Positions 6,210 through 57,739 are shown, counted from the first letter of the stretch. The stretch is 64,000 bases of DNA from a virus (IMGVR_UViG_3300043821_000026:74503-138502), one strand, 5' to 3'. The notes: a model not told the origin generated them from the sequence alone. Program-made: numbers and translations.

Positions 6210-6876
6210 ATTGTTCACCATTTTCTATTTTATAAAATTCTGTATATAAAAATCTTGCAAATTTAACTGCTATCTTTCTTTGTGTCATATATTTAATATG
6301 TTTCATTGTATAATTCGAATGTTTAAATAAATATTTATCAAAATATTCGTTATACATTTGTTTATATTCAGGGTTGTATTTAATTAACTTTTTAACAACT
6401 TTTAATATAACTTTATTTAATCTATCATTATATTGAATTTTTGAAGTATCCTGTTTAGGATTACCAATTATTTCACCATATTGTTTATTTTTTTTAGTAA
6501 TTTTTTGATATGAATTTCCCATTTTATTGACTGGAGATAATCCACAATAATATATGAATGAATTTTTATTCTTAAATCTATTAATATCTTTAATTAAAAC
6601 AATTAACTCACCTGCATCATAAATAGATATTCCGTCTATATGTTCTAAGCAATCATAGTATTCTGGAATAAATGATATTGTTTGTTTAATTTTTTTATAT
6701 AATAAATCTAATGGAGCGTCTAACGAATTAATACTAATATTAATTAAAGAATTTCTTGCATCATTTGTTAAACCTATAAAATTATTAATTCTAGATTTAT
6801 TTGATTTTTTAGCTTCAAATAATGTTTTATTAGTATTGATTAAGATATTTAATACTTGTAATTGTGCATCATCCAT
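6202..6876 (-). CDS. IS110/Nop-domain protein lacking the RuvC domain (TasA-like)
   Basis: LEHIDGISIYDAGELI..DINRF....F..YCGLSP, YNDRL and H.....RK....F...LY match the IS110 C-terminal/Nop fold; only a coiled coil precedes it. Confidence 0.75.
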   Translation of the reverse strand: MDDAQLQVLNILINTNKTLFEAKKSNKSRINNFIGLTNDARNSLINISINSLDAPLDLLYKKIKQTISFIPEYYDCLEHIDGISIYDAGELIVLIKDINRFKNKNSFIYYCGLSPVNKMGNSYQKITKKNKQYGEIIGNPKQDTSKIQYNDRLNKVILKVVKKLIKYNPEYKQMYNEYFDKYLFKHSNYTMKHIKYMTQRKIAVKFARFLYTEFYKIENGEQYD

Positions 6877-7517
6877 TATCTCACCTTATTAATTCCATTA
6901 ACAGTTTTTTGTCCTATACCTTTTATATTAAGTAGTTCTTCATCTGTTGCTTGTAATACACCTAATGGTGTTTTAAATTCTTTTAGTAATAATTTAGCTG
7001 TTTTTTTACCAACATAATCAATACCTAAAAGAACTTGAATTTTCGAACTAGCGTCTTTCTTTTGAACAATAGGAGGTTCAATTGGTTCAGTATTTTTATT
7101 AACAGTATTAATTATACTTTCAATTAACAATGGCATTGATTTTTTTGTTTCACATTGTAATACTGGAACTTTATATCTAACAGATAAAGAAGCTATATTA
7201 CTATAGTATTGTTTTCTAGTAAAATTTTGATATTTATAATTAATATCGTCTAATTTGCCATAAATAATAATATAACAAAAATCATATTTTTCTTTCATCC
7301 TTAATGCTTGGTCTTGAATGTGTCTACTATTAAAGCTAGACACGAAATCACTTACACTTTTAAGTTCAATCATAATATTAGATAAATCTTGTCTTTTAAT
7401 TAAAACATCACCATCTTCATTATGAGATACGGAGCAAATGCCTGAAAAGTATTCATCAATTATTTTTATTGTACTTGAATCTTCTCTATCATCTATTAAA
7501 ATTTTTAAATCATTCAT
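6876..7517 (-). CDS. ERCC4/XPF (Hef-like) nuclease with HhH motifs
   Basis: IDDRE, GDVLI, IELKSVSDFVSS, C-terminal GIDYVGKK and IKGIGQKT. Confidence 0.9.
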   Translation of the reverse strand: MNDLKILIDDREDSSTIKIIDEYFSGICSVSHNEDGDVLIKRQDLSNIMIELKSVSDFVSSFNSRHIQDQALRMKEKYDFCYIIIYGKLDDINYKYQNFTRKQYYSNIASLSVRYKVPVLQCETKKSMPLLIESIINTVNKNTEPIEPPIVQKKDASSKIQVLLGIDYVGKKTAKLLLKEFKTPLGVLQATDEELLNIKGIGQKTVNGINKVR

Positions 7518-9066: not shown

Positions 9067-9484
9067 TTACATCACCGACATATAGTTCTAATCTTCTATC
9101 TAAAACTTCATATATTAATCGTCTAATATAATCACATTCTGGTGATAGATATATTCCTCTACCATTCATAATATCAATATATGGCCAATCACGACATTCT
9201 CGCCATCTATCTTTCCATATATCACATACATATAATTTATAATTATCTTCATCATGTTGTAAATGTTCACATTCCATACTTGAACAGCAATTACCACATC
9301 TAATACAGTAATCTTTTGATTGTATATAATCATAGGTAAATTCAATCGGTGTAGTAACTATAGCTTCTTCAATTATATCTGCTAAAATATCAGTATCTAA
9401 ATCTGGAAATTTATTATGATAATAGTCTAATAATTCTTTTAATAATTTAAGATAGTTAGCAAATTTAGAAATTTTTTCTTCCAT
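9029..9484 (-). CDS. YkgJ/CxxCxxCC family Cys-cluster protein
   Basis: CIRCGNCC...CEHL...CDIWKDRWRECRDWP. Confidence 0.8.
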   Translation of the reverse strand: MEEKISKFANYLKLLKELLDYYHNKFPDLDTDILADIIEEAIVTTPIEFTYDYIQSKDYCIRCGNCCSSMECEHLQHDEDNYKLYVCDIWKDRWRECRDWPYIDIMNGRGIYLSPECDYIRRLIYEVLDRRLELYVGDVSDSWSDISKTKR

Positions 9485-10203
9485 TAGAAACCACCTTCAA
9501 TACTACATCTAGGTTTATATGGACAATATTTACATAAAAATTGTCTATTGGGTTGAAAATTATTTTCTTTAATTTTATTATTAATAAAATCTAATAATTT
9601 TAAACTTGCATTTATATCCTCTTGAGTTAATAAAGTACCTTTGTTAATTTCCCCTCTAACTTTTGCAAACCTAAAATTATTATCTCTTGTAAAAAATATA
9701 CCAACATATGAAACTGGTAACTCAAATTCGTCTTCTAATAAAACAACATAATATGAAAGTTCTAATAAATATTTTTTAACTCCACCTGTTTTACCAGTTT
9801 TATAATCTACTACCACTAGCTCCCCATCTTTAATTAATACTAAATCTGCTAAACCTGATAGGTTATATTTTAAATTATGAATATAATATTCTGCTGTATA
9901 TATTCTAAAACCTTCAGCAAAACAATCATATATAAAATCTGCAAAATGTGAAAGATGATTTTTAAATTCACTTGCTCTATCATATTGCATTAAAGCATTA
10001 TTTATATCATCGATTGACATATTTTCTATCTCTTTATTAGAATATTGTTTAACAAATAATTCAAATATTTTATGTATAGCAAGTCCTATATCTAATGCAG
10101 AGCCTTTTTCAGGACTTGGTTGTGGTAAGTTATCTATATTTTCATATTTAAATCGTCTAGGACATTGTAAATATGTATTAACCTTACTTTTTGATAATTT
10201 CAT
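9484..10203 (-). CDS. Cas4-like/RecB-family PD-(D/E)XK exonuclease
   Basis: LSKS...CPRRF, G..IH, GLADLV, VVDYKTG, C-terminal CKYCPYKPRC. Confidence 0.88.
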   Translation of the reverse strand: MKLSKSKVNTYLQCPRRFKYENIDNLPQPSPEKGSALDIGLAIHKIFELFVKQYSNKEIENMSIDDINNALMQYDRASEFKNHLSHFADFIYDCFAEGFRIYTAEYYIHNLKYNLSGLADLVLIKDGELVVVDYKTGKTGGVKKYLLELSYYVVLLEDEFELPVSYVGIFFTRDNNFRFAKVRGEINKGTLLTQEDINASLKLLDFINNKIKENNFQPNRQFLCKYCPYKPRCSIEGGF

Positions 10204-12646
10204 GTATATCACCATTTAATTTATCATTCTTCTTAACATTGGCGAACGGTTTTTTTGAGAACTTAAATTCAATATAATCAGACGCTACAATATCTTTTTC
10301 TATGTTATTATAAGCATTTGAACAACTCATAATAACAATATTTTTACCATCGTACCCATCAATTCTTAAACAGTCGTTTCCTTTTTTACTTTTAAAGTAT
10401 GTAATTTTTTTTACAACTGCATATTTTGCTTGATGTTCGTTTAAGCTTTTAATTATTGTTATATATGAATTACTAATATATTGGTACTCATTTATAAACA
10501 TTTCTTTATCCATTTCTAAATTAATAAAAAAATGTGCATAAAATTTACCCTTCCATGTATGGCATTTAACAATATATGGGTCACCAACTTTAAGGTTATC
10601 AATATATCGATTTAATACATTTTGATTTACACTAATAGATATATTATTACCTTTATCTTGAATATGGATAATACTGTATCCTTTTTTGTTATCTATATCT
10701 ATACATATTCCTTTAATATATACTTCATCAACATCAATGTTGGGATTGATATCATCAGTATTTGTTATATATCTATCATATTCGGTTTCATATTTATTAA
10801 TCAACTCTTCATGAGGGCTAAATTTTAATACTGCATATTCATATTTTAGCCTATCTTTATCAGACCAATCTTCATCAACTTTATCTTGATTAAATGTGTT
10901 ATATATTTCATTTCTGTTCCCAAATCTATCAAATGCACCTGCATATATTAGATTATTAACTACAGATTTATTAACTTTTCTTGGTCGTCTTTTTTGTAAA
11001 AATAAATCAAATGAAAAATAAGGCTGATGTAGTAAAATTTCTTCAATAGCTTTATCTCCAACTTTATCAATAGTTGATAGTCCCATATAAATATTTTTTC
11101 CCATAAATATAGTATCTCTTTGAGATATATTAATATCAGGATTATGTAAAACTAAATCCATATTTTTTATTTCAGATAATATTTTATTCTTTTTTTCATC
11201 ATCTTTTGTATGATTTAAACAAGCTACAGAAAATTCTGCTGGATAATATGTTTTTAAATACCCTGTATAATAACTTATTACTGCATAATTTTTAGCATGA
11301 GCTTTATTAAAACTATATGAACTAGATTTTTCAATCTTATCCCATATTAATTCTGCTGTTTCTTTAGATACGTTATTATTAAGACAACCATCAATAAACT
11401 TTGGTTTATATTCAGTAAAAATATAATCTAATTTCTTACCAATACCTTTTCTTATATTATCTGCATCAACATCAGTTAATCCTGCTAATACCATACATAT
11501 TTTCATTGCTTGTTCTTGATAAACAATTGCACCTTTTGTTTCTTTTAATATAGGCTCTAATCTTGGGTCATCATATTCAATTTCCTCTTCACCAAATTTT
11601 CGTGCAATATATCTATCTGCATCACCAGAATCCTGTGAACCGGGTCTTACTAAAGCTAAAGCCGCAATTAAATCATTAAAGCAATCTGGTTTCATCTTTT
11701 TAATATATGATGATGCTGATGGAGTTTCTAATTGAAATATATTTAATGGATTTTTTAGTATTGTATTATAAACTTTTTTATCTTCATATTCTGTTGGTAA
11801 TTTAAAGGTATCATTATTAATTAATTTAATTGTATCTTCAATAATAGATAATGTATTTAATCCTAATGTATCATTTTTTAAAAATTTTAAACTATCACAT
11901 CTATGACCATCATAGGATACACAATCTACACCATTAACTCTTACTGTTGATGAATAATTCTCTATTGAATCAGGGAATAATAATGTCCCACCTGCGTGAA
12001 TACCATATGCCTTTATTAATCCATTAATTTTTTTAAAATTTTGTTCAACTTTTGGATATTTATTAAAGAAATCCTGTACTTTTTTGATTTCGTATATATC
12101 ATCAACAGTCATATCATCAGTTATTAGAGATGTTATTTGATTTACTTCTTTAAATGGTACATTAAATACTCGTGATACATCTTTAATACTAGTTTTAATT
12201 GTGAATCTTATTAAATTTGGAATACTAAATGCACAATCTCTACCAAATTTATCTTTAATTAAATCTAATGCTTCTTGTCTTCTTGTTTTAGGAATATCTG
12301 TATCTATATCAGGCATTGAGTTTTTAATTCTAGTTTTATTTATAAAACGAGAAAACATTAATCCTTCTTTTAATGGGTCAGTAGAAACTATATTAAGACA
12401 ATAACATAATAAACTACCACCTGCTGAACCTCTACCGGGACCTAAAAACATTCCTTCAGATTTTAAAAGATTGCATATATAAGAAGTGTTTAAAAAAAAG
12501 TCAGATAGATTTGCATCAGTAATAATATCAAGTTCCATTCTTAATCTATCTTCGTATTCTTTACCTGATAAATGTCTTTTCTTAAAGCCTTTTAAAGCCA
12601 TTTTTCTTAAATAATCATCATTGTTTATATTAAATGTTTGTTGCAT
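10184..12646 (-). CDS. dnaE: Family C DNA polymerase (DnaE) catalytic subunit without PHP domain
   Basis: GPGRGSAGGSL, PDIDTD, HAGG, KNDTLGL, IFQLE, RPG, YQEQ, YSFNKAHA; the ATG overlaps the PHP gene stop (TAATG). Confidence 0.93.
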   Translation of the reverse strand: MQQTFNINNDDYLRKMALKGFKKRHLSGKEYEDRLRMELDIITDANLSDFFLNTSYICNLLKSEGMFLGPGRGSAGGSLLCYCLNIVSTDPLKEGLMFSRFINKTRIKNSMPDIDTDIPKTRRQEALDLIKDKFGRDCAFSIPNLIRFTIKTSIKDVSRVFNVPFKEVNQITSLITDDMTVDDIYEIKKVQDFFNKYPKVEQNFKKINGLIKAYGIHAGGTLLFPDSIENYSSTVRVNGVDCVSYDGHRCDSLKFLKNDTLGLNTLSIIEDTIKLINNDTFKLPTEYEDKKVYNTILKNPLNIFQLETPSASSYIKKMKPDCFNDLIAALALVRPGSQDSGDADRYIARKFGEEEIEYDDPRLEPILKETKGAIVYQEQAMKICMVLAGLTDVDADNIRKGIGKKLDYIFTEYKPKFIDGCLNNNVSKETAELIWDKIEKSSSYSFNKAHAKNYAVISYYTGYLKTYYPAEFSVACLNHTKDDEKKNKILSEIKNMDLVLHNPDINISQRDTIFMGKNIYMGLSTIDKVGDKAIEEILLHQPYFSFDLFLQKRRPRKVNKSVVNNLIYAGAFDRFGNRNEIYNTFNQDKVDEDWSDKDRLKYEYAVLKFSPHEELINKYETEYDRYITNTDDINPNIDVDEVYIKGICIDIDNKKGYSIIHIQDKGNNISISVNQNVLNRYIDNLKVGDPYIVKCHTWKGKFYAHFFINLEMDKEMFINEYQYISNSYITIIKSLNEHQAKYAVVKKITYFKSKKGNDCLRIDGYDGKNIVIMSCSNAYNNIEKDIVASDYIEFKFSKKPFANVKKNDKLNGDIHEIIKK

Positions 12647-13551: not shown

Positions 13552-13749
13552 TTATATACCTTTTAATTGTTTAACTGTAACACCAAATAGTACTGTCGGT
13601 TCAGGTATAATTATACTTATTATATTTTCGTATATATCTAAGCCAACTTCTATACCATAAGAATACCGACGCTCAACTATTGTAGTGTCTACGTTTTTTA
13701 TAAATCTTAATTCATCAAATTCTTCATTATATTCGATGTTCCAATTCAT
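13552..13749 (-). CDS. DUF2283-like small protein
   Basis: YNEEFDELRF...GIEVGLD...IISIIIP pattern. Confidence 0.5.
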   Translation of the reverse strand: MNWNIEYNEEFDELRFIKNVDTTIVERRYSYGIEVGLDIYENIISIIIPEPTVLFGVTVKQLKGI

Positions 13750-14639
13750 TCATCATCATTCTCACCATCATCTTCGTTGGGGATATTTGAAAAAAGTGAA
13801 TTAATTTTACCAGCGTCCCAAACATATTTATTAAGTTTGTTATTAACTGTAGCGAAAACCACTTTCTTTTTTATATTTAAAATATTTGAACGGTCTTTAT
13901 CCATCATTGCAATAAAGTTAATAACATGAGGATTTTTTTCATCTTGTTCTTTGGAATATATTAATCTATGAGAACAGGAACTATGTAGTCTTTGTTTAAC
14001 AGATGCAAATTTTTCATCATCAGGTTGTCTAATGAAATCATCATGTCCAATAAAGAAACAATCAATTGGTAATTGTAAAAATACTTCAGTACATTCACGG
14101 AAATTTTTAGCTCTAATTTTCCAGAATTGAGTATTTGCACCTGAATCAGGAGCTATATTTTTTTCTTCTCTCATTAAATTTTCACATGATTCAAGTAAAA
14201 AACTAATTCCATCAATGATAATAGCTCTAATTTTCATTCCTTCATCTGATAGTTCAGATATAGCTTGTGCGGCAGACCTAAGATTATCTACAAGACCTTG
14301 ATGGTCAATAACTGATACACCTTTTGCATTAACCATTGTTGCATATGGGTTGTAATGTTTTATCATATCTTTTTGATATGAATCAAAATTAAATTCTTTA
14401 ATAATTTCTAATGCACTATTATCAATATCAATAACAATGATTTTTTCATCTTCGCTCATATCTTGTAATAACATTGATATAACACTACCAGTTTTGCCTG
14501 TAGAATCTGCTCCTAAACATAATACATTTTTAGGAGTTTTAGGATTCATTACTACATTACTTTGTTCAAATATTTCTTTAATTTCATCTTTCAATGTTTT
14601 TCTTGGTTTTCTTGTTGCTTCTGCTTTCTCTTTAAACAT
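13746..14639 (-). CDS. P-loop ATPase (AAA_24/Sak4-like recombination protein)
   Basis: Walker A GADSTGKT, IVIDID, Walker B IIIDG, FFIGH. Confidence 0.75.
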   Translation of the reverse strand: MFKEKAEATRKPRKTLKDEIKEIFEQSNVVMNPKTPKNVLCLGADSTGKTGSVISMLLQDMSEDEKIIVIDIDNSALEIIKEFNFDSYQKDMIKHYNPYATMVNAKGVSVIDHQGLVDNLRSAAQAISELSDEGMKIRAIIIDGISFLLESCENLMREEKNIAPDSGANTQFWKIRAKNFRECTEVFLQLPIDCFFIGHDDFIRQPDDEKFASVKQRLHSSCSHRLIYSKEQDEKNPHVINFIAMMDKDRSNILNIKKKVVFATVNNKLNKYVWDAGKINSLFSNIPNEDDGENDDE

Positions 14640-14981
14640 TATCATTCACCTCATTACGAACTTTTTGTAATCGTTCGTATATAAAACCTCTTAATTGTGG
14701 AGTTTGTATATATTTTAAATCATCTTCAAGCATTTCTATTTCTTTTAAATTATTATTCTTGTTGCTCATTATTTTCACCTTCTTTTTTAGGTGGGTTTAA
14801 AAACATTAATCGTTCAAACATATCATTTTGATACTTCCACAATAAATTTTCTGCATATGCATATACCATAGGATGTTTGATATTTTGCATATCAATTCTT
14901 AAAATTTGTATTTTAGAGCGAAGACTTCTTGTCATATTACTCATTATGACAAGAGGGTCTTCAAATTCGCTATCTCCCATT

Positions 14982-21657: not shown

Positions 21658-21757
21658 ACTACCACCACTTATAGAAGTGGTGGATTCCTAACTTCGAGCT
21701 GAAAGGCAATCCCCGTCGTCCCAACGGTTCAGAATGTTTATTGCTGCATAAAACTGA
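21654..21757 (-). mobile_element. IS200/IS605-derived mini-element (tnpB 3' tip plus right end, i.e. omega-RNA scaffold), copy 1
   Basis: Encodes AAINILNRWDDGDCL (TnpB C-terminus-like), then GAATCCACCACTT-CTAT-AAGTGGTGG-TAGTTCAA; 103/104 identical to 28246-28349. Confidence 0.82.
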
Positions 21758-28041: not shown

Positions 28042-28443
28042 TTAATATGTTTTAATTTTATGCAAAGTAGAGTTAATTAAATCAATGCTATCTTTTACAT
28101 CTTCATTTATATGAAAGCTATCATCGATTATATGAATAGTAAAATAGTCTTCAAAATTCCCATCAACATAGGAATTTTTTTCCCAAATGTTTCTGCACCT
28201 ATCATTGATTTTTTGTTTTAATTTTGAAGTTGGTTTTACATTTGTTTGAACTACCACCACTTATAGAAGTGGTGGATTCCTAACTTCGAGCTGAAAGGCA
28301 ATCCCCGTCGTCCCAACGGTTCAGAATGTTTATTGCTGCGTAAAACTGATAATTTCATCACTTGTTAAAATACCCCACATTGTAAAATGGTTTTTTTTAA
28401 TTGTTTGAATTATCAATCTATTTAAACTATCATTACTAATCAT
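28042..28443 (-). pseudogene. 99-aa hypothetical gene interrupted by mini-element copy 2
   Basis: GGAGTG RBS plus MISNDSLNRL...SDEII and TNVKPTSKL...KTY* are in the same frame; removing 28246-28347 (102 nt) restores one ORF. Confidence 0.7.
28246..28349 (-). mobile_element. IS200/IS605-derived mini-element (omega-RNA scaffold), copy 2
   Basis: Same 104-bp sequence as 21654-21757 with different flanks and no target-site duplication. Confidence 0.82.
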
Positions 28444-48500: not shown

Positions 48501-48774
48501 TCATAAAACTATCTTCAATTTCAGAGTTAATATTTTTAATATCAACATCATTGAGGGTTGCATAATAAACTCCCATTACTCCTTGTATTTCATCTTTAGG
48601 TTCATGTAAGGTTATTATATCGTTTTTAACACTTAATAATTCATCAACTAAATCTTTTCTGAAATTATTTCTCCAATTAAACATAATTGAATTTAAATGT
48701 GTACTGTTGATAATGATTTCATCATTAATTACATCATTTATTTCAAATTCTTCAAATATCATAATATCACTCCT

Positions 48775-49257
48775 TTAATAAAATAATTCAAGGTTGTGCA
48801 TAATTCCATCGAAAATTATATCATTAGCATTTTGCATTTTACTAATTTCCATATTATATATTTCTATATATTTATTACCATCTATTTTAAATACGTAGAA
48901 AGTCATATTTTTTTCATTAATGATATATAACCATTCAATATCACAATGTACGGAATTATCAATACCATATCCTAAAAAGTCATTTAATTCTTTAATATCT
49001 TTCCTATTGGTATCCATAATGTAACTTAAAAACCATGCACTTAAATATCTAACACTAAAAATTCTATTTTTTGCTCCTTCGGTTTCAAAAAACTCTTTAA
49101 TAAGTTTTCCAACTACTGTTGGGTATCCATCACTATGTTTATAAATGTTACAATATGTTTGTTTGCATAATGTTTTTACATTTAATCCAATTCTTTTATT
49201 TCTTACTCCTTGTTCGTTAATATCTCTTGTCCATAATATTTGACTTCTAGTACTCAT
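48775..49257 (-). CDS. Conserved phage-type hypothetical protein
   Basis: MSTRS...IY.H.DGYP...DIEWLY pattern. Confidence 0.6.
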   Translation of the reverse strand: MSTRSQILWTRDINEQGVRNKRIGLNVKTLCKQTYCNIYKHSDGYPTVVGKLIKEFFETEGAKNRIFSVRYLSAWFLSYIMDTNRKDIKELNDFLGYGIDNSVHCDIEWLYIINEKNMTFYVFKIDGNKYIEIYNMEISKMQNANDIIFDGIMHNLELFY

Positions 49258-49555
49258 ATTTACACCTCTATTTTTAATATACAATATCCATTCCAACTTT
49301 CATTAATTAAGAAAGAAATTACTTCAGTATCTTCTACACTCCATTCATTATTTGATATATCCAATAAACTATCATGACTTATAAAGATATTACCCCCACC
49401 ATCAGAGTCTATTTGAGGACTGCCATATTTAAATAGTTGTATTCCTAATTTTTCAGATGTAATAATATCTTCATGTCTAATATAGATTGTTAGTTTTGTA
49501 TAGTCATCAAATACTTCATTGTTATGTATGGTTACTAGTTTAAAATTCATTTTAT

Positions 49556-49855
49556 TTACTCCAATATTTTATTTACTTCAGATAATAAGGCTTGGGTTAT
49601 TATATATTTTTTAGGTATCTTAGTTTCTGAAGCTATTTTATTTAATTTTGTTTTAGTTTCTGCACTTAAATAAAATCCTATTCGATTTATTCCAACATTT
49701 CTAGTATTATAAATACTTAATTTGTTATTAAAAACATCTTCAAGACCTTTAGTTAATATTTGACTTTGATTTAAGTTTGTTACTTCAATTGCTCTTATTA
49801 GTTTATACATTTGTTCTGTACTTAATTCTGTATCTACTATCATTTTATCCTCCAT
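49556..49855 (-). CDS. Tandem ribbon-helix-helix DNA-binding protein
   Basis: IGFYLSAETKTKLNKIASETKIPKKYIITQAL. Confidence 0.65.
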   Translation of the reverse strand: MEDKMIVDTELSTEQMYKLIRAIEVTNLNQSQILTKGLEDVFNNKLSIYNTRNVGINRIGFYLSAETKTKLNKIASETKIPKKYIITQALLSEVNKILE

Positions 49856-50528
49856 TTAATTAAACAATATAATTCCGAATACAATATATATTAATACTAT
49901 AGTTCCTACTTCAAATAACATTTTCCCACCTCCTCCGTTTCTGTATAAATAAATTTATCATTTTTTAAATATAATAAATATTTATAATTTTGTTTTTGTA
50001 ATTTTTTTTTAATTAATTTTTTATCACCTTCATTAATAATAATGTTATTATATACTTCTATTGACTTAATAATGTTATTGGAATTAATAATACGGCTTCG
50101 TAACTCCACCACGACTATATATTTCAATACCGATACCTGCATATCCACAGATATTACAACATATATCTCTTATATCTCCGTTATCTTCTCTAACTACTCT
50201 TATATTACTCATTCCACAATTAGGACAATATCCATCTTCTTCTTCAAATCTAACCATTTAAATCACCTAAATTTCGAAAATAACAAATTCATCTTCATTA
50301 TCAGGATAAAGACTTGCTTTATTTTCTTCTTTTTTTATTTTATTAATATCATTAAATCCTTCTGCTACAATATTAAAAATATAGCTAATTAAATCTTCTA
50401 TTATCATATTTCACCTATAAAATCATATTCCTAAATAATCTATTTTATATATTTTAGGAATATTATATTTTTTATTAATTTTTTCATTTTTTTCTATTTC
50501 ATCTAAACATAAAAAAATATCTTCATTA

Positions 50529-50957: not shown

Positions 50958-51561
50958 TTTAATCACCTATAAATCGTTAAAAACTACGTAGTCATTACCA
51001 TCATTAATTGTACGGTCTATAGCTTTATTTAAATTATCAATAATTTCTTTTGATAATATTTCTTCTTCTTCTACGATAAATTCTAATAAGTCATCAATTT
51101 CTATTTCAAAAAATCCTACACCATCAGAATTTGTAAAGTCATTTGCATAATCTAATAATGCAGAAAATACTTCAAAATCACTCCATGTATTAAATACACA
51201 AAAATTTAAATCAGTATCATAAATTATATGTCCATCAGAATACTGTACTGATGTATAATATGCTCTTACACTCATAAACTCACTCCAACCAAAAATAAAT
51301 ATCTTTATCTGTAATAGATGGGAAGATAATACATATAAATCTATCTTGCCATTTTTCTATACTTTCTTCAATAGACTCACAATCAAATCTTTGAAGGTCA
51401 TTTTTTGTATAAACACTTATGCAGTTTTCTAGGAAGTAAATTAAACTACAATTATACTCTAATTCGAAATATGTATCTACTAATTCTTTAAAATCTAATT
51501 CAGATACAATATCCTGTATTTCTTTTATCTTTGACATAATATCTCCTTTTTTTTAATTAAT

Positions 51562-51628
51562 GAAGCTAATAGCTTCTTAAACTCCTATCGCAATAGAAGT
51601 TTAAGAAGAGATTATAAATACTCTTCTT
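51562..51628 (-). repeat. Three-hairpin intergenic element, divergent copy
   Basis: AAGAAGAG/CTCTTCTT, CTTCTTAAACTTCTAT/ATAGGAGTTTAAGAAG, GAAGCT/AGCTTC. Confidence 0.7.
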
Positions 51629-51707
51629 CGTTATTTAAATAACTTAATTCCTCTTCTAACCAAATAATATCCTCTTCGCATAATATTTCTTCTTCTAACC
51701 ATTCCAT
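51612..51707 (-). CDS. 31-aa extremely acidic peptide
   Basis: GGAG RBS; MEWLEEEILCEEDIIWLEEELSYLNNEEEYL*. Confidence 0.6.
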   Translation of the reverse strand: MEWLEEEILCEEDIIWLEEELSYLNNEEEYL

Positions 51708-52465
51708 ATAAATTACTCCTCTTTTTGATTATCTAAATATTCTTTTTCTTCTTTATCATAAAGGAATGTTAAAAACTCCTTATATGATTGATTATTATAT
51801 AATTTTTCAAACTCTTTTTTAGTTATTAAATAAATACCATCATTATGAATATTATTTAAATAAATTTTTTGTAAATAATCTTTTGATGGTGTTATTGGAT
51901 TATTGCATGGCTCTAATATTATCATTTTAGGTATAGGTTCATCTACATTTGTTTTAAACGTATAATCATTACCGTTTATTTCAAACCCATCTTTATTTAG
52001 AAATATAACTGAATATTTATCATTATTTTTATCTCTATTTATTATCACTCCACATATTTTAGATTTATCAATATATTTGATTTTTTGTGTAATTTCTTCA
52101 GTCCATATATAATCATAGCATAAACTAACTTCTATTTCATGCTCAAACATAAAAATAGAAGCAAATTCATCTTTATTTACTCTTGTAGAATGGACAGAGA
52201 ACTCAAAATCATATATATCTTCTTCTAACTCTCTTAATAAATTTTCTTCGAAATTATTGTAATTATAAAAAGTCATTTTTAATCCTCAATTATATAATCT
52301 TCTAAAAAAGATTTTAAATCATTAACAGAAACATCACAGATGTTTATATTATCTTCAATGTACATAGATTGGAATATAAGATTAATAAGCTTTTCATATT
52401 CTTCACAATCAATTAAATCTATCATATACTGATAATGATTTCTTAAAAATACCTCATTACCATAT

Positions 52466-52804
52466 TCATTGCCCATATTTAAAATTAATTTCACCACTAT
52501 CTATTAGTTCTCTAATTGTTGTTTTAGGGAAAAATCTATCTCTTTCAATTCCTAAACCAAGTGCATTAGTCATATTTTCTAATTCAGAAAGCATAACTGT
52601 ACCAGTTTCCCATACAAGGATATAAGCATATCCGAATAACATATAATCATTGCCAACTTTTTCTGCTCCAATAATATACCATGTACCTGCTCCACATGGG
52701 TCAAAATATTTAACAATTACTTCAGAGTCATCTATAGTGTCTTTATTGCCGTATAAATTTGTATTATCGAATTTCTTTTGAATTTCTTTTGTTAAAAGTT
52801 TCAT
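52466..52804 (-). CDS. DUF2958 family protein
   Basis: VKYFDPCGAGTWYI...LFG....E.G.V.LSEL...IERD. Confidence 0.8.
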   Translation of the reverse strand: MKLLTKEIQKKFDNTNLYGNKDTIDDSEVIVKYFDPCGAGTWYIIGAEKVGNDYMLFGYAYILVWETGTVMLSELENMTNALGLGIERDRFFPKTTIRELIDSGEINFKYGQ

Positions 52805-52823
52805 TGTATAATCTCCTTATTTT

Positions 52824-52878
52824 CAAGCTTAAGAGCTTGTACAACTCCGAAGAGTTGTACAAGACCATAAGGTCTTGT
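52824..52878 (-). repeat. Three-hairpin intergenic element (CAAG/CTTG core, UUCG loop)
   Basis: ACAAGACC-TTAT-GGTCTTGT-ACAACTC-TTCG-GAGTTGT-ACAAGCTCTT-AAGCTTG. Confidence 0.85.
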
Positions 52879-53199
52879 TTAAGCTATTTCTATTCTATCA
52901 ATTATTTCTAATGGATAAACTCCTTTAGTTTCATAGAAATTTGGATAACCAATGTCAATATCTTCTCTAAGGTCGGAAATAGTGATAATTCCATCATTAT
53001 CAATACTGATATTAGATGTTAATCCAAGCATAGCCACTTTATCTGTATTTTTAAAAAATACGTTACAATCTTCACTATGAGAATAAACTAAAGTATGTTC
53101 ATTCTCAATAGTAAGTTTTACTTCTTCTCTACTTTCAGGTATACAAATTAAACCGATTGTATTAATTAAATTTTCACTTGTGTACATATTTAATCTCCT

Positions 53200-53257
53200 T
53201 AAGCTCATAATGAGCTTATACAACTCCTAAGAGTTGTATAAGACCATTTGGTCTTAT
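53200..53257 (-). repeat. Three-hairpin intergenic element (TAAG/CTTA core)
   Basis: ATAAGACC-AAAT-GGTCTTAT-ACAACTC-TTAG-GAGTTGT-ATAAGCTCA-TTA-TGAGCTTA. Confidence 0.85.
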
Positions 53258-53713
53258 AAATTAGTAATTCCTAATTCATCTGCCTCATTTAATAAATATG
53301 AGTCAGTAATTACTTCAAATAAATAATCATTTATTCTGTTTCTAGCTTCTTTAATACTCATTTCGCCAAATAAATTGACTTCAAAGGTATATAAACCATT
53401 ACTTTTACCTAAACAACAAACATCACTCATTGCACCATCTACATAATGGTCAGAGAGTTTACCATCAAGTTTAGTAACCATATCTTCACCACCTAAAAAG
53501 CTATTAATTTTACTTAAAGCTTCTTCAGGTACTTTAAATACCCAGTCATATAACTCATCTTCTTCCCTGTGTATAGGAGGAATGGAAAAGCTTTGGATTG
53601 ATTTAAGTGGAACTCTTATGGTTCTGCTACTTAAAGTAATTCCATTTCGACTGACTGTTTCGCCTTTGTTAAGTTTGTGGTCTTCGTAGTTCATAATTAA
53701 TTCTCCATTGATT

Positions 53714-53780
53714 AAAACTGCATAGCAGTCTTATTATAGCTTCTTTTAGTCAAAGCTATAATAACACTACTATTAGTTTA
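53714..53780 (-). repeat. Three-hairpin intergenic element, divergent copy
   Basis: TTATTATAGCTT/AAGCTATAATAA overlapping AAGACTGC/GCAGTTTT ahead of the GGAG RBS. Confidence 0.55.
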
Positions 53781-53781
53781 A

Positions 53782-53995
53782 ATATTGTGATGTCTTTCCT
53801 GCCGTTAAGGGCATGACCATCTCCCACGCAGATACCGAAGTACCCTATGAGAGTTGCATAGGTAAGCAAGGACTGTAAAAACAGTTTGCCGTTTAATAAG
53901 ACAATTATGCTCCAATTTGTTAATTTGGAGTGAGTTATCTCTTCCAACTCATTCTTAAGGTGTTTCAACCAGTATAGGAGTTACCTCCCTACAAT
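53782..53995 (-). ncRNA. Highly structured leader or ncRNA
   Basis: GC-richer; stems TGAGTT/AACTCA, CTCCAA/TTGGAG, AAACGG/CTGTTT, CCTATG/CATAGG, GGTAC-TTCG-GTATC, TGCC/GGCA, GATG/CATC. Confidence 0.6.
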
Positions 53996-54232
53996 ATACA
54001 TATTTGTTCAAACCACTATATAAAGGTATCGATAACCTTCAAGTGGTTTAACATATGAATTGTGGGGACTTGCCTCCTACAATATACATATTTGTTTCAC
54101 CCCATATATAAAGGTATCGATACCAAATTAATGATAACAAATATTTTTTTCTTAAGGTGTTTCAACCATCTTTGGGAGTTGCCCCCCTCCGATATATACA
54201 TATTTGTTGCACCCCCTATATAAAGGTGTCGG
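53953..54232 (-). promoter_or_regulatory. Three tandem promoter units (BRE-TATA plus conserved initial transcribed region)
   Basis: CGAYACCTTTATATA-N8/9-AACAAATATGTATAT three times, each followed by a GNRA-capped hairpin. Confidence 0.8.
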
Positions 54233-54703
54233 TGCAATATCATATGCTTAATAATATATAATTTTTTTTGAAATTTTATAAAAATTCCTATTACCACTAT
54301 CATAATGGTAGTAGTAATAGCAACTTTTATTAATTTTTTTCATTAAATTTTATTAATTTTTTATCAAAATTTTTATTCTCTATATAGAATATTTTTATAT
54401 TATATTTTCTATTCTATCTTTAGGAATATTATAATAAAATTTTTCTATATATATAATATAATATCTCTAATAAGTATTAATATCTCTATTATTAACTCCT
54501 ATATAGATAATTTATATATATCTCTTATTATATACTCTTATATACAAATTACTCTTACTATACATCTCTATATAGTATATTATTTATTTAAATTTGCTTT
54601 TATTTTTTTAAAGAAATTTAGTGGCTCTATTACATAAATAGCTACCTCTATGGCTTTCTTTAGCTAATTAAACAGCAAATTGGCTTCTAATTTCATAATT
54701 ACC

Positions 54704-54935
54704 CTCTTAAAGGGAATATTAATTAAACCCTCTTAAAGGTGCATTTAAGTCAGACTCTCTTAAAGGACTGAATTAATTAACAACTCTCTTAAAGGACTGA
54801 ATTTCATCAACGCCCTCTTTAGGGGGCTTTTTGATAAAAATTGTATTTATTTCCTGCCCTCTTAAAGGAAGATTATTTTCGATAAAAAAATAATCTTAAA
54901 AAAAATTGTATTTTAAAACTGCCCTCTTAAAGAGC
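54704..54935. repeat. Seven CTCTTAAAGG-like repeats next to a very AT-rich tract (candidate origin/iterons)
   Basis: Starts at 54704, 54730, 54757, 54786, 54815, 54859, 54924; AT-rich tract at 54240-54620. Confidence 0.7.
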
Positions 54936-55030
54936 ATTTTCACTATTATTTTATGATTAAAAATAATAGAGCCAAATAGAAGTTTTAACCCTCTATTTGG
55001 CTCTATCATTCATAATTGTCCTCTAAACGT

Positions 55031-55064
55031 AAAATAGCCATTCAGGAAAAATCCTGAACGGCTT
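55031..55064 (-). terminator. Hairpin terminator
   Basis: AGCCGTTCAGGA-TTTT-TCCTGAATGGCT-ATTTT; a second 15-bp stem lies at 54966-55006. Confidence 0.65.
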
Positions 55065-55519
55065 TAAAACTCTACTCTTCTGCGAAAACAATCTCTTGGA
55101 GGTTGTTTCCGTAAATGCCAGTTTCTAAGAAGCTAACATTTAAATCAGGAACTTGTAGTTCCTCTAATTCTCTTGCAATTTGTTTTGCAAGATTTGTATC
55201 GTCTTCAATTTTACGATACATTTTTTCAATATTTTTTTGAGAGCATAATTTTTTATCTCTCAATTGTTTTTGTCTTTGGCTTCTGGTTAATCTAACCACA
55301 GATTGAAGCTTATTTGGTTTTTTAGGTTTGCTAAGCTCTGCAATCTTTTCGAGCTTCTTTGTGTTGCGTTTAACTCTGTTATTAGCCAATTTGCATTGGT
55401 GTTTAAGAGATTTAACACGATTATCATATCGTTCAACACAATTGAACCATTTTACACCTCCGTAAACTTTTTCTTGTGGTATTAATATACTAACCATCTA
55501 ATCACTCCTTTTTTTATTT

Positions 55520-55580
55520 GAAGCTTTTTAAGAGCTTCTATAACCCCATTAGGGGTTATAGAAGACCTTATTGGTCTTCT
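55520..55580 (-). repeat. Three-hairpin intergenic element (GAAG/CTTC core)
   Basis: AGAAGACC-AATAA-GGTCTTCT-ATAACCCC-TAAT-GGGGTTAT-AGAAGCTCTT-AAAAAGCTTC. Confidence 0.85.
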
Positions 55581-55874
55581 TTTGCTTCTCTTAAGAACTT
55601 ATCTCTTGTTCTTGCAAGATACCCTAGACAATCTTCATCTAGTAATAATAGATGAGTTATCATATTGTCCATAAAATGCTTATGGGAGCAGTAAAAGCCT
55701 CCATTGGACATAACCCAGTATATTGCTCCGTTTTGGAGCAATATAAAGGCTTCTAGAAGTCCTCTATGGTTTTTACCCTTTTTAAATGTTATTATTTCAT
55801 TAATAACATCATCAATTTCTTCTCCTGCTTCCTGATAGTCTATTTTTGTTATTTTATTCATTTTTTTTACTCCT

Positions 55875-55936
55875 CAAGCTCTTATAGAGCTTGTACAACC
55901 CCATTAGGGGTTGTACAAGACCTATTTGGTCTTGTA
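55875..55936 (-). repeat. Three-hairpin intergenic element (CAAG/CTTG core)
   Basis: TACAAGACC-AAATA-GGTCTTGT-ACAACCCC-TAAT-GGGGTTGT-ACAAGCTCT-ATA-AGAGCTTG. Confidence 0.85.
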
Positions 55937-56054
55937 GTAGCTTCTAAGAGCATTATTTAGCTCTTTTTCACTACATATTAAGTCTTGTTTATCATCTCCT
56001 TTCAAAAAAGAAAGAAAAAGATAAAATAAATTATATACTTTCATAAAATCACTT

Positions 56055-56951
56055 CTATGATAAAAGTTCATATGTGGTTTTATTATGTTTTACGGAACAT
56101 AATAAACAATCTACGCCACATACGACATTTTTTTCACTTTTATAGCTACAAGGACACACTAATGCACCTTTCGGAGCTTTTGAGATGTCTTTTATAGCTA
56201 AAAATCTATTAGTACCTCTTATTTCTACTTTATCAGTAGAAATATTGATAACTAAATACTCACATAATTCCCAAGAGAGCTTTAAATCAGTTCTATGGGT
56301 GTATATGTAAGTATTTATGCCTAATACTTGCAATAATCCAAAAGCGACGCTTTCTGCAAAGCTAATGTCGCTTATACCTCGTACATCTCCGTCTACGCAG
56401 AAACGGAATAAGCTACAAGAGTATTTACTCTTATTACTCATTCCATTGACATACCAAACGAACATAAAGGCGTTTAATATGTCAATCTTTAAGCCCTGTC
56501 TTGTATGACAGTTTTCACCTTTATGACGGGTGTTTTCTGCCTTACAAGAATAGCAGTGGTCTGCGATTTCACAAAGACCAAGTTTCTTGGAGCTACAACG
56601 AGTACTGGACTCAAAATTAGTCCAATACACGGTATTAGCCAATTTTAGATTACCTTTTTTTATGAAGTCTTCTAATAAAAAGTGTTTCATAAAGCTATAT
56701 AATCTAGATTTGCGAACTTTTACGGAAACACCGTCATAATAGCCGAGTATTTCCATAATGACTAGACTTCGTGGTTCTAGCCACTCAACAGGGACATCTC
56801 CTGCCCCTGTTTTGATAAATTCTACTTGTTCATGATTTATAAAATCATGAACAAATATGTTTTTTTTATTTTTTGGAACAATCTTACGATATATCCCAAG
56901 CTCAAAACTTTGTTTTTCCAAAGTTTCTATGTTATATTTGCCCTTAGGCAA
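56055..56951 (-). CDS. Phage Gp88-like Cys-rich protein
   Basis: C......C.....CY..KAE, FRFCVDGD, YIYT, NIS, VCP...C..C..C. Confidence 0.65.
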   Translation of the reverse strand: MPKGKYNIETLEKQSFELGIYRKIVPKNKKNIFVHDFINHEQVEFIKTGAGDVPVEWLEPRSLVIMEILGYYDGVSVKVRKSRLYSFMKHFLLEDFIKKGNLKLANTVYWTNFESSTRCSSKKLGLCEIADHCYSCKAENTRHKGENCHTRQGLKIDILNAFMFVWYVNGMSNKSKYSCSLFRFCVDGDVRGISDISFAESVAFGLLQVLGINTYIYTHRTDLKLSWELCEYLVINISTDKVEIRGTNRFLAIKDISKAPKGALVCPCSYKSEKNVVCGVDCLLCSVKHNKTTYELLS

Positions 56952-56975
56952 AATATCACTTCCTTTTTTTTATTT

Positions 56976-57034
56976 GAAGCTTTTTAAGAGCTTCTACAAC
57001 CCCAAAGGGTTGTAGAAGACCTTATTGGTCTTCT
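56976..57034 (-). repeat. Three-hairpin intergenic element (GAAG/CTTC core)
   Basis: AGAAGACC-AATAA-GGTCTTCT-ACAACCC-TTTG-GGGTTGT-AGAAGCTCTT-AAAAAGCTTC. Confidence 0.85.
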
Positions 57035-57306
57035 ATTTCAATAAGGAAGTCATAAACTTCCTTAATGCTTACTTGCTTAATCACATAATTATCAACAATT
57101 TCGCAATTGTTGTTAATACGGTCAAAAAAGGTCATATCATGTGTTAAAACCATAAATTTTAACACTTTGATATTATTTTGTATAAAAGTGTAATTTGCCT
57201 CATTATTACATAAATTAAGGCAAAATACCCAAGTACTCCAATTGGAGTACCCATTATAGTCTTGGAAATCAACGGGATTTCCATAAATATTTTCATTTCT
57301 TAGCAT
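57022..57306 (-). CDS. Conserved phage-type hypothetical protein
   Basis: YNGYSNWSTW...L...N.E pattern. Confidence 0.6.
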   Translation of the reverse strand: MLRNENIYGNPVDFQDYNGYSNWSTWVFCLNLCNNEANYTFIQNNIKVLKFMVLTHDMTFFDRINNNCEIVDNYVIKQVSIKEVYDFLIEIEDQ

Positions 57307-57316
57307 TTAAATCACC

Positions 57317-57363
57317 AGAGCCTTTTAAAGGCTCGTACAACTCATTCAAGTTGTACCAGACTT
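57317..57363 (-). repeat. Partial copy of the intergenic element (hairpins B and C)
   Basis: GTCTGGTACAACT-TGAATG-AGTTGTAC-GAGCCTTTAAAAGGCTC directly before GGTGAT. Confidence 0.65.
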
Positions 57364-57719
57364 TAAAAATAAAAAAGAAAAAAAGAAAATAAAATTAATT
57401 TTTGTAATCCTTAACCATTTTATTACCTCCTTTTCGGCTTATCTATTCAAAATCATGCTTGGAAGCTAATTCTGCTATTTCTAGCAGATATTCAACTTCC
57501 TCCATAGGTTTAATAACTCCTAATCCTTTAAGGATTAGTCTGCACTCTTTTGAAGTGCGATATGCACTCCATAATGCGTCTATTTTAGTTTTACCTGCTC
57601 CCACTATGTTATCCACATAGTAAGTACCATTGATTTGATTATATGTTATTTCAACCATTTTATTACCTCTGATTTTTTTTTATACAAGCTTAAACTTGTA
57701 CAATATAGTATTTGTTTTA

Positions 57720-57739
57720 ATAGTATATAAAGGTATCGA
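57720..57739 (-). promoter_or_regulatory. Strong BRE-TATA promoter heading the leftward early-type operon
   Basis: TCGATACCTTTATATACTA-N5-AACAAATA, the same consensus as the 54.0-54.2 kb units. Confidence 0.75.

Follow-up and report, generated by a model that had tools for sequence, protein, structure and literature searches.

A three-hairpin palindrome fills early-operon junctions of a probable methanogen virus and coincides with gene gain and loss between strains

In phage T7, RNase III sites lie between the early genes, and hairpins stabilise the RNA ends after cleavage. REP/BIME sequences are extragenic palindromes that occur within operons and genome-wide; REPs can stabilise the upstream mRNA, and come with a conserved tetranucleotide and a cognate RAYT transposase. 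In cluster K mycobacteriophages, the start-associated sequences are short linear motifs tied to translation starts. Promoter-early stem-loops (PeSLs) have been described in RB49/phi1, PST and nt-1 (PMC2839356, PMC4122927). Where phi1 has one PeSL, RB49 has two with an ORFan between them, and recombination in T4 needs less than 50 bp of identity (PMC2839356). In selective RNA processing and stabilisation, intercistronic stem-loops set the stability of transcripts (PMC4423207), and in a methanogen the processing sites cluster directly upstream of ribosome-binding sites, with ~44% of the intergenic ones within RNA duplexes (PMC5499594).

The locus described here lies in a 64-kb window, the whole stretch of DNA analysed (64,000 nucleotides), of a 138.5-kb genome. 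The carrier is a tailed virus, and its host probably a pseudomurein-walled methanogen (Methanobacteriales or Methanopyrales). All coordinates are those of the window, and the element copies are read on the minus strand, which is the mRNA strand. The genes within 51-58 kb are all on the minus strand, with the following organization:

55072..57658, minus strand: early operon 1, genes g1-g6, ended by a hairpin and U-run at ~55030-55065
51280..53694, minus strand: first genes (g7-g13) of early operon 2, whose element-free junctions overlap or span no more than 5 nt
57724..57733, minus strand: CCTTTATATA box, archaeal-type TATA promoter motif of operon 1
57680..57703, minus strand: leader hairpin UUGUACAAGU-UUAA-GCUUGUAUAA, putative 5' end of the first early transcript

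Nine of the eleven early proteins belong to no Pfam or PHROG family, and g3 and g6 have no close relatives beyond the strain cluster. A copy of an element of 55-60 nt fills each of the six operon junctions that measure 60-74 nt, and the element-free junctions overlap or extend over at most about 10 nt.

In mRNA sense, the canonical element reads xAAGACC-loop-GGTCTTx' (hairpin A), TAYAACNC-loop-GNGTTRTA (hairpin B) and xAAGCT-loop-AGCTTx' (hairpin C), where the core letter x (G, C or U) changes together at all four positions. Scored with a covariance model built from the five canonical copies, the minus strand at ~51.5-57.4 kb holds these five, one divergent and one truncated copy:

56976..57033, minus strand: canonical copy, junction of g2 (94 aa) and g3 (298 aa); x=G; 100.5 bits; loop of hairpin A holds the g2 stop codon TAA
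55875..55934, minus strand: canonical copy, junction of g4 (49 aa) and g5 (97 aa); x=C; 89.9 bits; stop codon TAG in the hairpin A loop, hairpin C abutting the ribosome-binding site
55520..55579, minus strand: canonical copy, junction of g5 and g6 (141 aa); x=G; 92.2 bits
53200..53256, minus strand: canonical copy, junction of g7 (146 aa) and g8 (102 aa); x=U, so that xAA is the g7 stop codon TAA; 87.6 bits
52824..52877, minus strand: canonical copy, junction of g8 and g9 (112 aa, DUF2958); x=C; 82.5 bits; g8 stop codon ending 1 nt 5' of hairpin A; B loop cUUCGg, as reported earlier
51563..51627, minus strand: divergent copy, junction of g12 (31 aa) and g13 (85 aa); 36.9 bits, E 2e-6; stop codon inside the hairpin A loop
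57318..57356, minus strand: truncated copy upstream of g2, hairpins B and C only; 24.5 bits, E 1.6e-3; a long U-rich tract (57360-57400) in the place of hairpin A

The preliminary description had counted eight copies, of which seven stand, the one at 57317 being weak and limited to hairpins B and C. The supposed copy at 53714 drops out: the segment 53696..53770 (minus strand), ahead of g7, consists of two unrelated hairpins (12.3 bits, E ~1). The divergent copy, previously placed at 51562, was left out of model building and was recovered independently. It does keep the three-hairpin layout, but not the "largely different sequence" once ascribed to it, since both the GAAG/CTTC core and a hairpin C close to the canonical form are retained, which marks it as a diverged homologue.

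The element occupies the space between stop codon and ribosome-binding site, in agreement with the earlier reading: the stop codon is within or adjacent to hairpin A, at a position that varies (before the hairpin, in its arm or in its loop), and the ribosome-binding site follows 0-12 nt downstream of hairpin C. Two unrelated proteins, g2 and g5, indeed share the end EDQ*, and their stop codons fall within the loop of hairpin A. A gap of 0-12 nt leaves no room for a TATA box and the ~25 nt to a start site. The CCTTTATATA box has six matches against 0.8 expected, all on the minus strand and none within an element; it is found also at 54017, 54105 and 54217, ahead of operon 2. On the mRNA strand no U-tract follows the stem-loops of the element; intrinsic termination in archaea relies on oligo-U. 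The leader hairpin, which resembles the right half of the element (hairpin C), has an A-run and then a ribosome-binding site downstream; transcription start at this hairpin is placed from the sequence rather than mapped. As to the proposal that the first transcript begins with the right half only, a similar hairpin does follow the CCTTTATATA box, but its match to the model lacks significance (E 1.2).

Three abutting hairpins are the minimum-energy fold in each canonical copy, with folding z-scores of -6 to -9 against dinucleotide shuffles. The whole element, concordant x included, is one larger palindrome built from three smaller palindromes. Because the four x positions change together, as had been noticed, the three-hairpin fold and the alternative, in which an extended stem B is closed by pairing of segments 1 and 4, are both 100% paired. 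Across 18 distinct variants from 48 instances, the 21 pairs are kept in every case (378/378 pair cells). The expected covariation was found in part: pairing is fully kept, but only four of the 21 pairs covary and 17 are invariant. Among strains, at least six changes fall in loops, and the stems show a single change, compensated, from C:G to U:A; stem B of the 55520 copy reads UAUAAC/GUUAUA here and in one further strain (L059), and UACAAC/GUUGUA in the others. This comparison of variants shows that the stems are under selection for pairing. The loops differ in length (4-5 nt in hairpin A, 3-7 nt in hairpin C) and their sequences are not conserved. A three-hairpin RNA model leaves the common outer xAAG/CUUx' and the common x of hairpins A and C, present in all six copies, unexplained.

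The two strands fold with equal quality. Model scores are 82-100 bits in sense against 37-55 bits in antisense, and all copies have one orientation. The G-U wobbles are mixed, pointing to the sense strand in two divergent copies and to the antisense strand in hairpin C of the copies at 55520 and 56976. Given the equal folding of the strands and the mixed wobble evidence, the structure could act in DNA rather than RNA.

On balance we lean towards reading the element as a standard intercistronic linker of the two early operons, which serves as a recombination point and in mRNA insulation or stabilisation. In the polycistronic early mRNA, it would form its three abutting hairpins in the stretch from a stop codon to the following ribosome-binding site, and might thereby insulate and stabilise each cistron. 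The upstream cistron would have its 3' end blocked by hairpins A and B, and hairpin C would give the downstream cistron a 5' structure comparable to the hairpin that opens the primary transcript. Transcription through the elements, the RNA ends and the effect on stability are all deduced from sequence features, and a passive part in mRNA stability or insulation is plausible.

A more active role was suggested at first, namely an mRNA processing and refolding switch in which an endonuclease cuts stem B and the halves refold into a protective 3' hairpin A and a 5' hairpin C, releasing monocistronic RNAs in the manner of the T7 RNase III sites. The a-a'-a-a' core, which allows both folds at full pairing, is consistent with such a switch, as are the common x of hairpins A and C (six of six copies), demanded only by the alternative pairings, the leader hairpin that mimics hairpin C, and the duplex location of ~44% of methanogen intergenic processing sites (PMC5499594). 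However, the alternative is computed to be less stable than the three-hairpin state by 5-7 kcal/mol, so that switching is not expected at equilibrium; the loops are not conserved and folding is without strand asymmetry. The extended stem B has only 12-13 bp, short for RNase III, whose typical substrate is longer, and the bulge-helix-bulge motif of the archaeal splicing endonuclease is present in no fold examined. Moreover, an RNase III domain (PF14622) is absent from the virus and from all four archaeal control genomes, a set that does not include the host genome, and is found in eight bacterial ones. We regard a switch of this kind as unlikely.

The position of the stop codon in or next to hairpin A, together with the ribosome-binding site that abuts hairpin C in two copies, could also point to translation coupling, in which termination within hairpin A makes the hairpins gate the next ribosome-binding site. 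But the predicted folds leave the ribosome-binding site unpaired in every case, and the stop codon shifts between copies as described. In addition, the 3' arm of hairpin A would be hidden under a ribosome that terminates there, and so could not extend stem B. Similarly, an operator for a dimeric regulator fits poorly with loops of variable length and with compensatory changes, which are unlike sequence-specific dimer binding. We give these two devices, taken together, hardly any credence.

Strain variants of ~92-99% identity were compared, including two structural variants that are metagenome contigs. One of them (L022, JGI 3300045591) carries an extra 53-aa ORF at the g5/g6 junction, flanked by one full copy to its left and one to its right; this ORF also ends EDQ*, so that three unrelated proteins have that end. 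Strains with a single copy at g5/g6 have either the left or the right C-loop allele, with the same right flank. In the other (L048, ENA, two samples), g2 is joined straight to g6 via one hybrid copy, composed of the A loop of the g2/g3 copy and the C loop of the g5/g6 copy, and the following block is absent:

55580..56975, minus strand: g3, g4, g5 and the internal copy at 55875

Furthermore, the g5/g6 junction is mosaic, all four combinations of two B-stem and two C-loop alleles being found among strains, and the crossover intervals differ between events, mapping to different segments of the element. A deletion inside g10-g11 in two strains (L026 and L034) has no element at its bounds. The breakpoints of gene gain and loss that had been anticipated are thus seen in the L022 insertion and the L048 deletion, and the alternative of a recombination site for gene cassettes gains from cassette gain, loss and mosaic alleles at the copies. 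As judged from these assembled sequences, the copies are the sites of cassette deletion, insertion and mosaicism between close strains, even if the L022 and L048 arrangements might conceivably be contig mis-joins across the ~40-nt identical core.

With neither an integrase nor a resolvase found, homologous recombination between copies is the simplest mechanism. Among the viral gene products are an AAA_24 ATPase, a PD-(D/E)XK nuclease and an ERCC4/XPF nuclease. A structure-specific site, either a cruciform or four-way junction or an attC-like folded single strand, might instead be cut by a dedicated enzyme such as the viral ERCC4/XPF nuclease to give targeted exchange. The palindromy of the whole element with its concordant x, the like folding of both strands, the cassette gain and loss at the copies and the two encoded nucleases agree with such a site. 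Nevertheless, no tyrosine or serine recombinase was found in the virus; for the tyrosine family, PF00589 has no match in the virus record, estimated 95% complete, and matches all 14 control genomes. The integron core GTTRRRY is also absent, the element reading GTTGTAG, GTTGTAC or GTTATAG, and the crossovers fall in varying intervals, so that the attC-like mechanism raised earlier is not supported. In addition, the 36-51 nt of identity may suffice for ordinary homologous recombination (T4: less than 50 bp, PMC2839356). We therefore consider a dedicated structure-specific site very improbable. A broader version, a two-state four-way junction that is a dedicated cassette-exchange site and also punctuates the early mRNA, strikes us as improbable too; here the concordant x and the palindromy would permit cruciform extrusion or RNA refolding, followed by a cut by a structure-specific nuclease. 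If true, an archaeal virus would shuffle genes in an integron-like manner but with no integrase. Under the preferred reading as a linker, recombination between the repeats may be a by-product rather than a function.

The palindromic architecture would fit as well a selfish miniature element (MITE-, REP- or PATE-like), functionless for the virus, whose hairpins are recognised by a single-stranded DNA transposase. The copies overlap ORF ends and supply the last codons and stop of the three EDQ* proteins, and the viral genome includes an IS200/IS605 element encoding TnpA (Y1) and TnpB. Yet the hairpin CCACCAC...GTGGTGG, which is repeated beside this IS200/IS605 element and at two other sites, bears no relation to the three-hairpin element; a weak model match at 28214-28289 (22.5 bits, E 0.0045) overlaps one such hairpin. 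The copies all sit within 6 kb, share one orientation and in every case run from stop codon to ribosome-binding site, with no conserved flanking tetranucleotide or target duplication visible, and their stems are under purifying selection in the population. No further copy was found in the rest of the genome, nor elsewhere in two relatives, IMG/VR, JGI metagenomes or 185,579 prokaryote genomes. Abutting perfect triple hairpins number five in this genome, all in this region, and zero in the two relatives (49 and 155 kb); the element is missing from a relative whose terminase is 77% identical and whose promoters are of the same type. Rfam at gathering thresholds gave only five tRNAs in the window, and the element matches no family; within 51-58.2 kb nothing exceeded 33 bits against thresholds of 59-100. 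A selfish origin is distinctly unlikely.

Compared to the known systems, the cluster K start-associated sequences are linear, whereas the element is a hairpin triplet. The hairpins match no cognate Y1 element, as those derived from IS200/IS605 or REP-like sequences would, and are not dispersed in either orientation. The T7 RNase III sites share with the element the character of structured intercistronic pieces of a polycistronic early transcript, but a T7 site is one long hairpin with an internal loop, in contrast to three short perfect hairpins, in a virus that like the archaeal control genomes shows no RNase III domain. Stem-loops at cistron boundaries (PMC4423207) and processing just upstream of ribosome-binding sites (PMC5499594) also resemble the present layout; those stem-loops differ from gene to gene and form no repeated family, and their sites were mapped experimentally, whereas the element is known from sequence. 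Like the element, attC sites are palindromes, though imperfect, that bound promoterless cassettes, and in both systems either strand folds equally well; the hairpins of the element are perfect, without extrahelical bases or GTTRRRY, and its crossovers are unfixed, with no integrase found. The PeSLs (PMC2839356, PMC4122927) likewise contain a stem-loop, and in both systems relatives differ by two copies around an ORFan versus one copy, with crossovers at various internal points. The element accompanies ORFans in a variable early region, and its copies bound indels in which two copies stand against one (L022, L048), but it has no early promoter inside the repeat. A PeSL brings a sigma-70 promoter together with a terminator hairpin, so that the genes form separate transcription units, whereas the element lies within operons and has neither promoter box nor U-tract. 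It further differs in its three hairpins within a larger palindrome and its archaeal host, and has no sequence similarity to PeSLs. By analogy, the element matches a PeSL-like gene-exchange repeat without a promoter, in an archaeal virus.

The virus record spans 138.5 kb with a GC content of 27% and an estimated completeness of 95%, and the window is its final 64 kb. The virus encodes a terminase, a portal, a DnaE-type polymerase and an intein-bearing NrdD. It also carries a PF09373 pseudomurein-binding repeat that exceeds the Pfam cut-off, and the archaeal-type box CCTTTATATA occurs six times, exclusively on the minus strand, against 0.8 expected. Together, the repeat and the box make a methanogen with a pseudomurein wall (Methanobacteriales or Methanopyrales) the most likely host. 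As every gene at 50-58 kb of the window lies on the minus strand, the element, a repeated linker between early genes, is described here in the mRNA sense.

Each canonical copy of the element consists of three abutting hairpins, A, B and C, in which x and x' denote the outer letter of hairpins A and C and its pairing partner. The members and their hairpins are as follows, with the scores of a covariance model trained on the five canonical copies.

52824-52877, minus strand: canonical copy, three abutting hairpins
53200-53256, minus strand: canonical copy, three abutting hairpins
55520-55579, minus strand: canonical copy, three abutting hairpins
55875-55934, minus strand: canonical copy, three abutting hairpins
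56976-57033, minus strand: canonical copy, three abutting hairpins
51562: diverged member, matched independently at 36.9 bits, E 2e-6
57317: truncated copy, hairpins B and C only, 24.5 bits, E 1.6e-3
53714: non-member, 12 bits, E about 1
Leader hairpin at the transcript start: not significant, 12 bits, E 1.2
Hairpin A, canonical copies, mRNA sense: xAAGACC-loop-GGTCTTx'
Hairpin B, canonical copies, mRNA sense: TAYAACNC-loop-GNGTTRTA
Hairpin C, canonical copies, mRNA sense: xAAGCT-loop-AGCTTx'

RNAfold predicts the three abutting hairpins in all five canonical copies. Measured against dinucleotide shuffles, the copies have folding z-scores between -9 and -6. When the 138.5 kb were searched for triplets of perfect, abutting hairpins, exactly these five sites were recovered; two relatives (49 and 155 kb) contained none. 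The preliminary description had counted eight copies, which we revise to six full copies plus a truncated one, the eighth site being a non-member; its assignment of the copy at 51562 is confirmed despite the divergence of that sequence.

The placement of the element is tightly tied to the translation signals. Four copies have the upstream stop codon within the hairpin A loop, one has it in the 5' arm of that hairpin (where x = U gives UAA) and another 1 nt ahead of the hairpin; the ribosome-binding site follows 0-12 nt downstream of hairpin C, so that the arrangement proposed earlier, with the stop codon in or against A and the ribosome-binding site after C, holds in the full copies. All copies have a fixed orientation. 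A copy occupies each of the six 60-74-nt junctions in the two operons, and the remaining junctions overlap or are only a few bases long. At its inferred 5' end, the primary transcript also carries a hairpin C-like hairpin, behind which come the same A-run and ribosome-binding site; this hairpin was previously taken as half an element, and the resemblance to hairpin C stands, but not at a significant covariance score. Overall, the element is a conserved structured linker that runs from stop codon to ribosome-binding site.

Several other features were observed around these genes. A tiny ORF after g1 (window 57360-57442, minus strand) encodes 7 residues here and 20 in strain L021, owing to a 39-nt indel between AAGGATTAYAAAA direct repeats; between this ORF and g2, a long U-rich tract has the look of an archaeal terminator or attenuator. 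The C-terminal 200 residues of g3 (window 56055-56951) belong to a widespread family of proteins that are mostly ~200 residues long (201 matches, E up to 0.001). Members of this family match Pfam GP88 (PF17338, function unknown), to which the C-terminal part of g3 is distantly similar, and a search for relatives of the N-terminal 90 residues found none. The interval that separates the early operons contains some seven copies of CYCTCTTAAAGG, 28-60 nt apart, beside a very AT-rich stretch (window 54690-54935 and 54240-54600); these copies could form an iteron-type replication origin or an array of regulator-binding sites. Three tandem units at window 53950-54240 (minus strand) each comprise CCTTTATATA, a 17-19-nt spacer, an ATAT-rich start region and a hairpin; two units have ATATTGTA as their start region. 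The units run into a GC-rich structured RNA of ~210 nt (53782-53995) upstream of g7, for which Rfam has no match.

All 21 base pairs are formed in each of the five canonical copies, and in 18 distinct variants (48 instances in strain contigs) 378 of 378 pair cells are paired. The covariation claimed previously is thus upheld as complete pairing, but only four of the 21 pairs vary, two of them in B and the other two being the outermost pairs of A and of C (each G:C, C:G or U:A). Differences between strains comprise at least six loop changes and a single change in a stem, the compensated replacement of a C:G pair by U:A. Given that pairing is kept in all variants, and that both strands fold equally well with wobble pairs favouring neither, the structure is real and selected, and compatible with action in RNA or in DNA.

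Every one of the six copies has the same letter x in A as in C, in line with the reported co-change of the core letter at four positions. As a consequence, the extended stem B (12-13 bp) and the 1:4 closing stem are also 100% paired. RNAalifold prefers one long hairpin; in single sequences the three-hairpin state is better by 5-7 kcal/mol. An RNase III-like processing and refolding switch in stem B, the main reading of the preliminary description, would therefore be thermodynamically unfavoured; moreover, the stems are short, and an RNase III domain was found neither in the virus nor in archaeal control genomes, all of which weaken this reading. On the other hand, a simple RNA model does not explain the concordance of x between A and C and the palindromy of the whole element, so a role of the element as a DNA cruciform or in refolding stays a minority reading.

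We propose that the three hairpins keep the individual cistrons of the polycistronic early mRNA insulated and stable, as suggested by the fixed orientation, the tie to translation signals and the hairpin C-like 5' end of the transcript. Selective RNA processing and stabilisation, in which intercistronic stem-loops set transcript stability, is known (PMC4423207), and in a methanogen mRNA processing sites cluster directly upstream of ribosome-binding sites (PMC5499594). A terminator role is doubtful, as the mRNA strand lacks a U-tract after the hairpins. Two other roles were rejected: a tRNA-like cloverleaf would have the wrong arm sizes, and ARAGORN and Rfam place tRNAs only at 1.0-1.7 kb; and a guide or ribozyme acting in trans from the 210-nt leader RNA would pair with the element at duplex energies no better than those of shuffles (z -0.5 to -2.2).

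We further compared about 30 strain contigs of roughly 92-99% identity, retrieved from JGI, ENA and Logan assemblies by exact-protein look-up, one of them from a wastewater metagenome. Contig L022 has an additional 53-residue ORF between g5 and g6, flanked by a complete element on either side. Like g2 and g5, this ORF ends EDQ*; none of the other contigs contains it, and the genome holds no paralogue of it. Strains with a single element at this junction carry the C-loop of either the left (UUAAAAA) or the right (UUAGAUA) L022 copy, with an identical right flank. Conversely, L048, found in two samples, lacks g3, g4 and g5 (~1.4 kb) and joins g2 straight to g6 via one hybrid element, which combines the A loop of the g2|g3 copy with the C loop of the g5|g6 copy. 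At g5|g6, both B-stem alleles are found together with each of the two C-loop alleles, giving all four possible combinations, which points to recombination or gene conversion within the 60-nt element. The variants are metagenome contigs; the core over which the element copies are identical is ~40 nt long, so a mis-join across it is unlikely. Gene gain and loss with breakpoints in the element, put forward as a check, are thus borne out by L022 and L048, and these together with the g5|g6 mosaics support in effect the alternative of a recombination site for gene cassettes. The strain comparison shows the element as a site where cassettes have been gained, lost and made mosaic. The GC3 of individual cassettes gave no clear pattern of foreign origin. 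Recombination is not confined to the elements, as L026 and L034 lack ~480 nt inside g10-g11 (window 51735-52213), leaving a fused 95-residue ORF, with breakpoints in a short direct repeat outside any element.

Homologous recombination between copies is the simplest mechanism. A search of the virus found no tyrosine or serine recombinase; it encodes an ERCC4/XPF-type nuclease with helix-hairpin-helix motifs, a Cas4-like PD-(D/E)XK nuclease and an AAA_24 ATPase (window 6876-7517, 9484-10215 and 13746-14645), which together may constitute its own recombination toolkit. The virus also harbors a complete IS200/IS605 element with TnpA (Y1) and TnpB (G000 48708-50250). The hairpin CCACCACTT..AAGTGGTGG beside it (G000 50231-50252) recurs at window 21662-21683 and 28254-28275.

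The element is a recent, lineage-specific innovation. Neither the remainder of the genome nor three relatives identified via terminase (94, 77 and 37% identity) yielded further copies to the covariance model. The 77% relative has the same promoter type before small early genes, its intergenic gaps are plain, and three-hairpin elements are absent from its contig L007; beyond its early genes, a dense array of GTTCGTATACGAAC-type palindromes (L007:600-1480) is possibly an origin. Exact-pattern scans of IMG/VR (two patterns), JGI metagenome contigs and 185,579 prokaryote genomes gave only chance matches in unrelated GC-rich DNA. The region has no BLAST match among GenBank phages, the element matches no Rfam family, and homologues of g3 and g6, sought as a route to distant element-bearing viruses, led only to the strain cluster. 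Literature searches likewise turned up no archaeal virus for which a linker of this kind has been described.

The early genes of methanogen viruses are mostly ORFans, likely for host takeover or counter-defence, and little is known about their expression and reshuffling. By marking where cassettes meet in a methanogen virus associated with the gut or wastewater, the element provides a sequence-level handle on both, and as a compact RNA or DNA structure it is a candidate for a role in archaeal mRNA stability or processing. It is neither an integron attC site nor a REP-like or IS200/IS605-derived element. Among known systems, it comes closest to the promoter-early stem-loop (PeSL) cassette of T4-type phages, in which an ORFan of RB49 lies between two PeSLs where phi1 has a single PeSL, with crossovers inside the repeat (PMC2839356, PMC4122927). 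The principle of shuffling at linkers is already known and the present results are computational, so the advance is moderate; our results suggest that such modular shuffling at conserved intergenic linkers also occurs in an archaeal virus, with a promoterless, intra-operon architecture. The element resembles PeSL in location and indel pattern but differs in having no promoter, and a terminator role is doubtful; hence, it works like PeSL at the DNA level, yet is no PeSL.
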